Virus record (IMG/VR): IMGVR_UViG_2579778631_000021
Reading direction: 5' to 3' (one strand)
Length of the DNA: 37,649 bases
Source of the DNA: a virus
Lineage: Duplodnaviria > Heunggongvirae > Uroviricota > Caudoviricetes
Shown here in pieces: positions 9,169 to 11,918 of this stretch (within the stretch, counting starts at the first letter, position 1; the number at the start of each line of letters is the position of its first letter). A program made the translations under genes and the position numbers. The notes under the pieces are model-generated. The model saw only the letters and a list, made by a program, of their open reading frames with translations, searched no databases and was not told the DNA's origin.

Positions 9169-9750
9169 ATGAACAACTCATGGTGGCAGGAACTAATGCA
9201 TTTTTTCCTGCAAGGAATGACACTTAAACAGTTGATTCATATGCTAATCATCCTAATCATATTGATTATTGTTATGCCTGTAAGCGTAAAAGAATGGATA
9301 AACCTGCATAATCCAGAAATCCTTCCTCATTACTGGATGTATTACATCCTGTTGTTTTGCGTTAGCTATGTGCTTAACGGCGTTGTTAATTCCGCTTATC
9401 ACGCTGTGACTGAAAGAATTGAGATATTCGCTGCTCAGAAGCGCAAATCTAAAGAAGAGAAATACGTGCAAGATTTGTTTGATTCGTTAACTCTTGGAGA
9501 AAGAGCGTATTTGGCATTCGCTGTAGCCGCTAATAACCAGCTAAAGACAGAAAAGGGAAGCCCTGAAGCAATCTCATTGCTCGAAAAAGGGCTTCTTATT
9601 CGGGTACCTTCTGCTACTGGATATCCTGAAATCGACCGTTTTGTTATCCCGGAACGCTATAGAAATGAGTGCTACATTAGGTTTGCTGGGAAGAAAGACA
9701 GTCTTATGGATGAACTTATCGCTCAGGATAAGCATGGCAAAAACAAGTAA
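9169..9750 (+). CDS. SieB-like superinfection exclusion membrane protein
   Basis: 193-aa ORF on opposite strand to pL operon, AT-rich, N-terminal hydrophobic segments; position and size as for lambdoid sieB; recalled similarity only. Confidence 0.45.
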   Translation: MNNSWWQELMHFFLQGMTLKQLIHMLIILIILIIVMPVSVKEWINLHNPEILPHYWMYYILLFCVSYVLNGVVNSAYHAVTERIEIFAAQKRKSKEEKYVQDLFDSLTLGERAYLAFAVAANNQLKTEKGSPEAISLLEKGLLIRVPSATGYPEIDRFVIPERYRNECYIRFAGKKDSLMDELIAQDKHGKNK

Positions 9751-9766
9751 TTAGCAAATTAATTTA

Positions 9767-10039
9767 TCATCTCGCCGTCAGTTGTTTTGATTTCCGGTAG
9801 CCTGCCGCGTAAATGGCTACGTTTGGCAGGCAAATACTTCCACTGCATTCATCTGCCTTCTTGCAGCGAAGGCTTCCGAGTGATGCTGCTTTGTCTGCTC
9901 TGACGCAACCAGAGAGCTTTAGCGCAATTTTTCGCGCCAGTCGCTGTTCTTGCATTGCCTGCTCACGTTGAGCCTGTCTGCGTGCTCTGCGGCGATTTCT
10001 GGCGTTATCGTCAGCCAGATATGTAATGACTACTGCCAT
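9767..10039 (-). CDS. N-like transcription antiterminator
   Basis: First gene downstream of pL and nutL; arginine-rich motif NARNRRRARRQAQREQ near N-terminus; GGAGG SD. Confidence 0.6.
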   Translation of the reverse strand: MAVVITYLADDNARNRRRARRQAQREQAMQEQRLARKIALKLSGCVRADKAASLGSLRCKKADECSGSICLPNVAIYAAGYRKSKQLTAR

Positions 10040-10187: not shown

Positions 10188-10233
10188 CTGCCAATCTGTT
10201 CCGTTTGGCTACCAGCGTCCTGCTGATGGCTAA

Positions 10234-10277
10234 AGAATACTGTAGGTATTTTATTGTGTAAATACCCGAGGTATTTA
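10234..10277 (-). promoter_or_regulatory. pL promoter with OL operators
   Basis: Minus strand -35 TTTACA (10257-10262), 17-nt spacer, -10 TATTCT (10234-10239); inverted repeats AATACTGTAGGTATT (10236-10250) and AAATACCCGAGGTATTT (10260-10276). Confidence 0.55.
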
Positions 10278-10406
10278 TTTTTGGTGAAATAATGATAAGC
10301 AAATGAATACAAAGGATATTTATTTTTTCGGTGTCTGCTTGTTCAGTGCTTTTTATGCGGGATATGTGAAGTGGATCCCGATAGCTATTGCTGCCGGGAT
10401 TATGGG

Positions 10407-10775
10407 TTAGTCAGCGAAGGTTAAGACGAGAATTACCTTAATGATGTCTGCTACAACAGACACGGCCATAGATAAACCAAAGACGATCCAAGCCATAGAG
10501 ATGTCTTCACTACCATCGTATAGAGTTCCGTAATCACTGGTGTAAGGCGTAAATGTCGCGCCTTGATACAATAGGTATAAGCTTGATCCATAGAGGATAA
10601 ATGCAGATATCCCTTGTATTGCCATGATCACCAGAATCATGAAACGAGCTGATCTATGCGCCCAAGCCTGGCTTATTTTTTCTGATAGAGATTTCGCAAT
10701 AAAAGCATGCGCTAAGCCGTAAATTGTTGAGATTGCCAACATCCCCAAAAAGCTTGCTATAGCGGTTCCAACCAT
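10407..10775 (-). CDS. Small polytopic membrane protein in rexAB position, co-transcribed with cI
   Basis: ATG at 10775 with AAGGGG SD (TTG at 10796 overlaps cI stop); about 122 aa with 3-4 hydrophobic helices; lies between cI and OL. Confidence 0.6.
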   Translation of the reverse strand: MVGTAIASFLGMLAISTIYGLAHAFIAKSLSEKISQAWAHRSARFMILVIMAIQGISAFILYGSSLYLLYQGATFTPYTSDYGTLYDGSEDISMAWIVFGLSMAVSVVADIIKVILVLTFAD

Positions 10776-10792
10776 AATCGCCCCTTGCGTGA

Positions 10793-11509
10793 TCAAACCA
10801 GCCTTAGTTTTGTCTCAATTGCAACGCCTATAATCTTGCAGTTTCCATTGATTGGCACGAGAGGCCATGCAGGATTAAGTCCCTTGAGGTATTTATTTCC
10901 GCCGTCGATTATCAGCTTCTTGAATGTTGCTTCGTTAGAGTCAGAAAGTTTTGCTATGACCAAGCTGCCGTTGATCGCCTCCCTTCCGGTATCGAAAAGA
11001 ACGAATGTTCCCTCTGGAATGCTTAACCCAACCGGTGCCGTCATTGAATCACCTTCCACTTTAAGCCAGAACGCATTACCTTGAATATGCGCGTCAGACT
11101 CAAGCCAAACATCTATGTCTTTAATGGTGTATGGTTCGCATGCTTCACACCACGAGCCAGCCTGGATACTGCTTAACACCGGATACCTCTTTCCTGCTCT
11201 GTATTCCCCTGCATACCTTACGTTGGCATCGCTCTTAAGGCTTTCTGCCTGTTCTGCAACCTTGGCAGCAATTGACTGGCTAAAATCAGCAATTGAGACT
11301 TGCAACAATCGTGCAAAACCAGATGCAACCTCAACGTTTAGCGCGTTTCTGCCATTAAGATAATGCCCTACCGCTCCTTGGGTGATACCCAGTTCATCAG
11401 CGATTGAGTATTGGGTTATTCCCAATTCTTTCTTTTTTGACTCATACAAAGCCTTAAGACGCTTAGCGTCTTCGAGCTGTTCTGTCGTCAGTGATTTTTT
11501 ATTTTCCAT
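10793..11509 (-). CDS. cI: CI repressor (HTH N-terminus, S24 LexA-like autocleavage C-terminus)
   Basis: 238 aa; N-terminus MENKKSLTTEQLEDAKRLKALYESKKKELGITQ resembles lambda cI; C-terminal GDSM and FKKL catalytic Ser/Lys motifs. Confidence 0.9.
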   Translation of the reverse strand: MENKKSLTTEQLEDAKRLKALYESKKKELGITQYSIADELGITQGAVGHYLNGRNALNVEVASGFARLLQVSIADFSQSIAAKVAEQAESLKSDANVRYAGEYRAGKRYPVLSSIQAGSWCEACEPYTIKDIDVWLESDAHIQGNAFWLKVEGDSMTAPVGLSIPEGTFVLFDTGREAINGSLVIAKLSDSNEATFKKLIIDGGNKYLKGLNPAWPLVPINGNCKIIGVAIETKLRLV

Positions 11510-11544
11510 AGCTTAATTCTAATAGCTAAGGTACTTAAACTAAA

Positions 11545-11586
11545 AATACCCTAAGTATTGATTGCTTTGAATACCTGTAGTATTCT
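11545..11586. promoter_or_regulatory. OR operators with pR (and probable pRM on opposite strand)
   Basis: Inverted repeats AATACCCTAAGTATT (11545-11559) and GAATACCTGTAGTATTC (11569-11585); pR -35 TTGATT (11558-11563), -10 TATTCT (11581-11586); minus-strand TAGAAT close to cI ATG suggests near-leaderless pRM. Confidence 0.6.
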
Positions 11587-11615
11587 TTGTTCATGGTTAA
11601 TAACGGAGAGTGCAT

Positions 11616-11810
11616 ATGATTCGAATGACACTTGCCGATTACGCCAAAATCCATGGACAGGCTAAAGCAGCCAGTGACTTTGGTGTAATCCAGTGCGCTA
11701 TCAGCAAGGCCATTCTGGCAGGCCGTAACATCATGGTTACGGTAAAGCCTGATGGCAGTGTGATTGGAGAGGAAGTTCGTCCTTTCCCAAGCAACAAGAA
11801 AAACAAATAG
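11616..11810 (+). CDS. cro: Cro repressor
   Basis: [62 protein letters not shown] strongly resembles lambda Cro; GGAGAG SD. Confidence 0.85.
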
Positions 11811-11816
11811 TAACAC

Positions 11817-11859
11817 CGCTCTTTAACAGTCATGGTCATCATTCCCGCCGAAATGCGGG
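11817..11859 (+). promoter_or_regulatory. nutR (boxA CGCTCTTTAACA + boxB CCCGC-CGAAAT-GCGGG), followed by tR1-like hairpin
   Basis: boxA 11817-11828, boxB 11844-11859; downstream hairpin GCGCAT-ACGTTG-ATGCGC then T-rich tract. Confidence 0.6.
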
Positions 11860-11918
11860 AATACAACGCGCATACGTTGATGCGCATAACTTCTTATTTG
11901 TTAAGGAAATACTTACAT

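Follow-up and report, generated by a model that had tools for sequence, protein, structure and literature searches.

A predicted right operator region of the HK620 immunity type between divergent cI and cro genes in a Caudoviricetes sequence

In this study, the gap between the divergent genes cI and cro was analyzed in a virus sequence of the Caudoviricetes (IMG/VR virus record IMGVR_UViG_2579778631_000021). The whole stretch of DNA, 37,649 nucleotides long, is called the window, and all coordinates refer to it. The gap from the cI ATG to the cro ATG (11616) is exactly 11510-11615, a length of 106 bp. The locus raises the question of whether this gap is the right operator region (OR) of a lysis-lysogeny switch, how many operators it holds, where the cI transcript begins, and whether the operators define a new immunity type. 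A first-pass annotation had quoted palindromes, promoter hexamers and a cI start signal in the gap. When these elements were checked against the sequence, every one of them was in its given place.

The region 10200-11830 was compared with known sequences by megablast. It matched HK620, mEpX2, HK630, HK140, HF4s and others over its full 1631 bp with an identity of 99.0-99.2%. Of 5426 complete E. coli genomes, 146 matched the region at a coverage of at least 80%, and the region was also found in some Stx2c phages. The GenBank record of HK620 (AF335538 / NC_002730; Clark, Inwood, Cloutier & Dhillon 2001) annotates OR1-3, pR, OL1-3, and pL. OR1, OR2, OR3, pR, OL1, OL2, and pL of that record map exactly onto features of the window, and the OR of the window differs from that of HK620 by one base (11553, in the OR2 spacer). 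The remainder of the window differs from HK620, being another P22-like/lambdoid mosaic with different replication genes, and single phage records covered at most about 51% of its first 25 kb. The OR is of the HK620 immunity type, which has been annotated since 2001, and the feature is an ordinary one that was already known. The operators in the HK620 record may themselves have been annotated by sequence prediction only; literature searches on the operators of HK620 and mEpX2 yielded neither binding data (footprint, EMSA) nor mapped transcription starts for this type.

The genes around the gap, with the cro ribosome-binding signal, are as follows.
9767-10039: N gene, with a Pfam N_peptide antiterminator domain; pL lies upstream of it
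10793..11509, minus strand: cI repressor gene, 238 aa, with Pfam matches to HTH_3 (8e-10) and Peptidase_S24 (5e-24); cI in HK620
11605..11608, plus strand: cro Shine-Dalgarno sequence GGAG, 7 nt before the cro ATG
11616..11810, plus strand: cro, 64 aa, with a match to Pfam Cro PF09048 (3.6e-26); cro in HK620

The cI protein has an N-terminal helix-turn-helix domain and a C-terminal S24 autopeptidase domain, and it was 43% identical to lambda cI over 233 aa. When the two proteins were aligned, the Ala117-Gly118 cleavage site, Ser155, and Lys197 were invariant. Asp38, a positive-control residue of lambda cI, was also invariant. Cro was 63% identical to lambda Cro. The closest solved structures were those of lambda repressor (3bdn and 1lmb) for cI and of lambda Cro (1cop and 6cro) for Cro. 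The gene after cro encodes a CII-family protein according to Pfam.

Three predicted operators and a rightward promoter were located in the gap. The operators were scored with a position-weight matrix (PWM).
11520-11536: predicted OR3, degenerate, TAATAGCTAAGGTACTT; two mismatches in 10 arm bases; annotated as OR3 in HK620
11544-11560: predicted OR2, AAATACCCTAAGTATTG; exact arms; PWM score 21.4; annotated as OR2 in HK620 and kept in relatives
11569-11585: predicted OR1, GAATACCTGTAGTATTC; exact arms; PWM score 21.3; annotated as OR1 in HK620
11558-11563, plus strand: predicted pR -35 hexamer TTGATT, inside the pR annotated in HK620
11581-11586, plus strand: predicted pR -10 hexamer TATTCT, after a 17-nt spacer; inside the pR annotated in HK620
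11558-11593: pR as annotated in HK620, in window coordinates

The first-pass annotation had described two palindromic operators overlapping a rightward promoter, TTGATT / TATTCT. The promoter hexamers are present with a 17-nt spacer, and the palindromes do overlap them. OR2 overlaps the -35 hexamer by 3 bp, and OR1 covers the spacer and 5 bp of the -10 hexamer. One of the palindromes, AATACCCTAAGTATT at 11545-11559, lies within OR2. The reading of the two palindromes as operators held, since they coincide with the OR2 and OR1 annotated in HK620; the count of two did not, since OR3 had been missed. The centres of OR1 and OR2 are 25 bp apart, and those of OR2 and OR3 are 24 bp apart.

The exact motif AATAC-N5-GTATT (AATACNNNNNGTATT) was searched for in all 37,649 bases. 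It occurred four times, with 0.03 copies expected from dinucleotide shuffles, and none of 100 shuffles reached four copies. The copies start at 11545 and 11570 at pR and at 10236 and 10261 at pL, and there were none elsewhere in the window. Because all four copies lie over early promoters and so few were expected, the observation was considered real and not a product of chance. The half-site derived from 26 exact half-sites was N-A-A-T-A-C-Y-N, on either side of a central base pair; positions 2 and 5 were A, and position 6 was C, in 26/26. OR1, OR2, OL1, and OL2 had the four highest PWM scores of the whole window. A search allowing two mismatches was noisy, so that only the exact-motif and PWM analyses separated signal from noise. 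By these measures, OR3 and a candidate third left operator (described below) are predicted sites at the noise boundary, and their assignment rests on position and conservation.

The promoters were also searched for with a consensus scanner. The predicted pR was not called, with 8/12 matches at a threshold of 9/12; pRM was not called either, and at that threshold no minus-strand promoter was called in OR. The scan of the window gave 3 promoter-like sites, compared with 6.8 in shuffles. As it returned fewer sites than the shuffles and missed both pR and pRM, the scan was uninformative here, and the promoter assignments rest on position, homology with lambda, and conservation. On the minus strand, the following elements were assigned to pRM.
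11521..11516, minus strand: putative pRM -10 hexamer TAGAAT, 6 nt (TAAGCT) before the cI ATG (11509..11507)
11544..11539, minus strand: putative weak pRM -35 hexamer TTTAGT, with a 17-nt spacer and 3/6 consensus matches, placed by analogy with lambda

A TAGAAT hexamer 6 nt from the cI ATG, in a layout resembling that of lambda, had been claimed for this strand. The hexamer is present, and lambda has TAGATT, 6 nt, and ATG. The promoter had also been called weak, and this label is reasonable because the -35 hexamer matches the consensus at only 3/6 positions, with a spacer of 17 nt. The putative -35 hexamer shares one base with OR2, and its sequence was not kept in relatives. OR3 overlaps the pRM -10 hexamer by 2 bp and also overlaps the pRM spacer. 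No Shine-Dalgarno sequence was seen upstream of the cI ATG. The cI mRNA is predicted to be leaderless. In lambda, the leaderless start of cI is experimentally established.

The left operator region (OL) lies upstream of N. Its features are as follows.
10227-10262: pL as annotated in HK620, in window coordinates
10262..10257 and 10239..10234, minus strand: -35 and -10 hexamers of pL (TTTACA-17-TATTCT), called by the promoter scanner
10235-10251: predicted OL1, GAATACTGTAGGTATTT; exact arms; PWM score 21.3; annotated as OL1 in HK620; overlaps the pL -10 hexamer
10260-10276: predicted OL2, AAATACCCGAGGTATTT; exact arms; PWM score 22.6; annotated as OL2 in HK620
10282-10298: OL3 as annotated in HK620, TGGTGAAATAATGATAA; PWM score -21.9, no motif
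10305-10321: candidate third OL operator, GAATACAAAGGATATTT; one arm mismatch; PWM score 11.9, equal to that of OR3
10295-10325: terminator tIMM as annotated in HK620, in window coordinates

The exact cores of OL1 (10236-10250) and OL2 (10261-10275) are 25 bp apart over pL, and OL2 overlaps the pL -35 hexamer (10262..10257) by 3 bp. The OL3 annotated in HK620 has a common polymorphism at 10284, and a 1-bp indel precedes it among HK620-type contigs. The candidate at 10305-10321 lies within AT-rich DNA that HK620 annotates as tIMM, at a distance of 45 bp from OL2. Its 15-mer was unaltered in 78 of the 79 HK620-type IMG/VR loci that hold OL, with a singleton change in the other. Tatumella saanichensis also has a third OL site at +45, and Serratia phage OS31 has one that is weaker; several other relatives have a third site at +21 or +29. 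We lean slightly towards the view that the third left operator of HK620-type phages is misplaced in the record and that 10305-10321 is the better assignment. If this is true, the same sequence in tIMM, the terminator of the cI operon, would serve both to bind repressor and to end the pRM transcript, and the third OL site in the wider AATAC-operator family would lie at +21, +29, or +45. The relocation of OL3 would be a minor correction to the annotation and does not reveal a new kind of system.

Diverged relatives were investigated by sensitive blastn and by a prophage scan with one genome per species. Hafnia phage Pocitis76, Serratia phage vB_SspS_OS31, and Erwinia phage vB_EhrS_49 (Ehr49) were found at about 70-72% nucleotide identity. 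Prophages were found in Tatumella, Serratia, Pantoea, Providencia, Pectobacterium, Yersinia, Morganella, Photorhabdus, and Xenorhabdus. The operators are unannotated in the Hafnia, Serratia, and Erwinia phage records. In these three phages and in the prophages of Tatumella, Pantoea, Providencia, Pectobacterium, Yersinia, and Photorhabdus, cI was 52-72% identical to the cI of the window, and the OR arms, the spacing, and the pRM/pR layout were shared. Their cI recognition helix (helix 3) reads QGAVGHY, then L, I or M, then NGR. The Cro helix, here and in the relatives, is QCAISK or QTAISK.

An alignment of 14 OR sequences, 56-72% identical to the window, was made; it included 13 diverged relatives from eight other enterobacterial genera, and the genera aligned were Escherichia, Hafnia, Serratia, Erwinia, Tatumella, Pantoea, Providencia, Pectobacterium, Yersinia, and Photorhabdus. 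The CAT of the cI start, ATTnTA (TAnAAT, the pRM -10 hexamer, on the other strand), the AATA of OR3, and the arms of OR2 were invariant or nearly so. AATAC and GTATT of OR1 were invariant in all 14 sequences. The pR -35 hexamer began with TTG or TTT, with TT near-invariant, and the pR -10 hexamer was TATTCT or TATTAT in all 14; the cro ATG was also kept. The GGAG before cro was present in 13 of the 14 sequences, and Serratia bockelmannii had AGAG. The operator centres and the DNA between the operators varied freely.

Conservation within the HK620 type was examined with 80 IMG/VR loci, all with a cI identical to that of the window; they were used for population SNPs and not for divergence. The OR varied at 14 positions among these loci, none of them in the AATAC/GTATT arms of OR1 or OR2. 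The number of arm SNPs was 0, compared with about 2.6 expected, and this difference was only marginally significant.

Operator sequences were then compared with the cI recognition helix. Every locus with the helix QGAVGHY or a close variant had AATAC-type sites at offsets of about 12, 36, and 60 from the ATG. Loci with the helices QSGVGAL, QSAIAAL, and QSAVGAI had TATCAC/AACAC-type sites, and no AATAC site with at most one mismatch was found at loci with lambda-type helices. A Yersinia group with the helix QSAVNQF had a third operator type. Many of the genome matches at 43% identity were lambda itself, and those inspected carried the lambda OR; they served only as a lambda-type control. A change of operator type goes along with a change of the cI recognition helix.

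The following marks of a lambda-type OR were present in the window: divergent cI and cro genes, three spaced predicted operators with OR1 and OR2 over pR and OR3 over pRM, an OL repeat upstream of N, and the autocleavage residues in cI. The region 11510-11615 is very probably the right operator region of a lambda-type lysis-lysogeny switch of the HK620 immunity type. From homology with lambda, we infer the binding, the order of occupancy, the activation, and the transcription starts. In a lysogen, cI dimers on OR1 and OR2 would block pR (TTGATT-17-TATTCT). The cI dimer at OR2, which would adjoin the weak pRM -35 hexamer, would contact RNA polymerase and activate pRM. Transcription from pRM (-10 TAGAAT) would start at or beside the A of the cI ATG, so that the cI mRNA would have no leader. 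OR3 would be bound by cI at high levels, or by Cro after induction, which would turn pRM off. The OL sites at 10235-10251, 10260-10276, and probably 10305-10321 would control pL by repression. Prophage induction would follow RecA-stimulated self-cleavage of cI at Ala117-Gly118, in which Ser155 and Lys197 would be used.

Other explanations of the locus were considered. The palindromes could be chance AT-rich inverted repeats or by-products of the promoters instead of protein-binding sites: each arm is only 5-6 bp long and AT-rich, part of the -35 (TTG) and of the -10 (TATT) comes from the right arms, and the search with two mismatches returned many background matches (24, with 14 expected). However, the exact copies far exceeded expectation, all at pR or pL with 25 bp between the members of each pair, and the arms were kept in place in relatives with 56-72% OR identity while the spacers drifted. 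The left AATAC arms are part of no promoter element, yet they were equally conserved, and the motif type switches along with the cI recognition helix. This explanation is extremely improbable. A reading of the arms as RNA hairpins was likewise rejected; the 5-6 bp AT-rich arms are kept as DNA half-sites at a fixed spacing, with freely varying spacers. A narrower alternative accepts OR1 and OR2 as functional and takes 11520-11536 as a decayed remnant, so that pRM would lack negative autoregulation through OR3. The two arm mismatches of OR3, its PWM score of 11.8, barely above the background maximum of 11.3, and its place as the OR3 furthest from the motif among the 14 aligned sequences are consistent with decay. 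On the other hand, a recognisable OR3 site lies 11-13 bp from the cI ATG in 13/13 aligned relatives, usually with at most one arm mismatch, the left arm AATA of OR3 is invariant in the alignment, and the HK620 record annotates the site as OR3. In lambda too, OR3 is the weakest cI site, and it is the place of Cro action. A two-operator OR was therefore considered improbable, and an OR of three operators was preferred.

The start of the cI transcript could also differ from the prediction even if the operators are real. TAGAAT would then not be the pRM -10 hexamer, and a leadered transcript would start upstream, for example between OR2 and OR1 or in cro. The silence of the promoter scanner on the minus strand of OR and the poor -35 hexamer TTTAGT are compatible with such a start. 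The distance from TAnAAT to the ATG was 6 nt in 11 of the 14 aligned sequences and 7 nt in the other three, and in Morganella and one group of Yersinia it looked shorter (about 3-5 nt). Against this, TAnAAT was invariant in all 14 sequences while the bases between the hexamer and the ATG varied, and at lambda-type loci TAGATT, TAAATT or TAGAAT likewise precedes the cI ATG by 6 nt. The cI ATG, which has no Shine-Dalgarno sequence before it, also stands in a layout identical to that of lambda with its established leaderless start. A leadered cI transcript was considered quite improbable, and the preferred reading is a near-leaderless pRM transcript beside a three-operator OR.

The arrangement of the window was compared with that of lambda (record NC_001416). 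Gene order is the same in both, the promoters diverge, and each has three operators of 17 bp built around a central base pair. The distances are as follows.
cI ATG to OR3 start: 11 bp in the window, 11 bp in lambda
cI ATG to OR2 start: 35 bp in the window, 34 bp in lambda
cI ATG to OR1 start: 60 bp in the window, 58 bp in lambda
cI ATG to cro ATG: 107 bp in the window, 101 bp in lambda
Operator centres: 25 and 24 bp apart in the window, 24 and 23 bp apart in lambda
OR2 centre from the A of the cI ATG: -43 in the window, -42 in lambda
OR2 and pR -35 overlap: 3 bp in both
OR1 and pR -10 overlap: 5 bp in the window, 4 bp in lambda
pRM -10 to cI ATG: TAGAAT-TAAGCT-ATG in the window, TAGATT-TAACGT-ATG in lambda, 6 nt in both

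Measured from the cI ATG, the operators lie within 2 bp of their lambda positions. The OR2 centre is 1 bp off its position in lambda, so the start site or the activation geometry may differ by 1 bp. Between cI and OL, the window has a small gene in place of rexAB, and its 122-129 aa protein had no Pfam match.

The predicted specificity of the operators differs from that of lambda. The half-site in lambda is TATCACCG (TATCACCGC) and in the window NAATACYN, and the half-site of lambda immunity was not found here. Compared with lambda T-A-T-C-A-C-C-G, positions 2, 5, 6, and 7 are shared, and positions 1, 3, 4, and 8 differ. Helix 3 of cI is QSGVGAL(FNG) in lambda and QGAVGHY(LNG) in the window; the changes are S45G, G46A, and A49H, while Q33, Q44, N52, N55, and K4 are kept. 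The assignment of these cI residues to particular base pairs, which we take from the 1LMB complex, is a lead.

The recognition helix of Cro is QSAINK in lambda and QCAISK in the window, with Ser changed to Cys at H2 and Asn changed to Ser at H5. In lambda Cro, Ser H2 and Asn make the contacts to positions 3 and 4 of the half-site (PMC6649833). These two positions differ in the window, and the same two contacting residues are exactly those that are changed (to Cys and Ser). Three pairings given in this source for the "evolutionary code" of Cro (Hall, Lefevre & Cordes) are Gln H1 with A+2, Ala H3 with A+5, and Lys H6 with C+6 (PMC6649833); Q26, A28, and K31 of the window Cro fit all three against N-A-A-T-A-C. 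The locus is a natural example of a lambda-like cI/Cro pair whose specificity is shifted mainly at half-site positions 3 and 4. A comparison across genera could serve work on the protein-DNA recognition code; it opens no new question.

The first-pass annotation had proposed a distinct immunity specificity from the difference between the half-sites and those of lambda, to be compared with known lambdoid groups. The comparison bore out the difference from lambda, which extends to the cI and Cro helices, and showed a match to the HK620 type; the predicted specificity is therefore distinct from that of lambda and is not a new type. The phage mEpX2, which by megablast carries the same immunity region as the window, is reported to fall in a different immunity group from lambda, HK022, phi80, and others, and double and triple lysogens of lambda and mEpX2 have been built (PMC3442831). 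The assignment to the HK620 type predicts which prophages confer superinfection immunity on one another. Its importance beyond correct annotation is small; the type occurs in some Stx2c-converting phages.

The third OL operator was considered by using a position-weight matrix (PWM) of the 17-bp predicted cI/Cro sites. The sequence at 10282-10298, annotated as OL3 in coliphage HK620 (GenBank AF335538), had a PWM score of -21.9, showed no likeness to the operator motif and was polymorphic. A candidate operator, AATACAAAGGATATT, was located at 10305-10321, 45 bp from OL2. It has one mismatch, falls within the annotated terminator tIMM, and is identical in 78 of the 79 OL-containing related contigs, whose encoded cI is identical to that of the window.

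The window carries rare alleles in two operator central spacers. At 11553 in OR2 it has A, and G was found in 73 of 80 related contigs; at 10268 in OL2 it has G, and A was found in all 76 (76/76). Both positions lie within non-contacted operator centres.

The genes and the antitermination site around the operators are as follows.

9169-9750, (+): SieB superinfection-exclusion gene (Pfam 1e-25)
10407-10796, (-): small gene between cI and OL, hkaS homologue
11817-11862: nutR, boxA plus boxB-like hairpin
11817-11826: nutR boxA, CGCTCTTTAA
11842-11861: nutR boxB-like hairpin, TTCCCGC-CGAAAT-GCGGGAA
12232-12876, (+): T5orf172/MUG113-domain protein gene, between cII and replication gene O

The orientation of the SieB gene opposes the pL operon. 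A near-operator sequence inside the gene (9328-9344) had a PWM score of 11.3 and is overlapped by a terminator-like hairpin at 9335-9349; this match is probably due to chance.

Several database records showed anomalies. In Serratia phage vB_SspS_OS31 (L005), the cI start is annotated 16 codons too far upstream (2730-2778), so the annotated CDS covers OR3 as well as the -10 of pRM; at 2730 lies the conserved start, MESKKSLTTEQ. Lambda-like cI matches of 43% identity in the one-genome-per-species scan (L111-L123, L126, and others) were on contigs in assemblies of unrelated organisms, among them Shewanella, Chromatium, Kitasatospora, Capnocytophaga, Paenibacillus, and Bradyrhizobium. Of these contigs, several were short or of low coverage, and the lambda OR sequence was present in all three inspected (L111, L123, and L126). 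These matches are almost certainly lambda DNA contamination. In Aeromonas phage AP1 (MT713136.1, 254 kb), 155 bp near the record end (253505-253659) were 100% identical to window 11676-11830, which comprises the cro 3' end and nutR. This match points to an artefact of assembly or contamination in the AP1 record.

The hkaS homologue is 129 aa by the ORF tool versus 122 aa in the HK620 record, and no Pfam domain was found in it. Its sequence looks hydrophobic and lysogens probably transcribe it together with cI, so it may function in exclusion or conversion. In lambda, rexAB occupies this place. The T5orf172/MUG113 domain is GIY-YIG-like; at the position of this gene HK620 has the small hkaW gene. 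The replication genes downstream encode an O protein and a DnaC/IstB-like loader, not a DnaB-type P helicase. The nutR of the window agrees with the annotated nutR of HK620, whose record notes an N of the phage 21/H-19B type.
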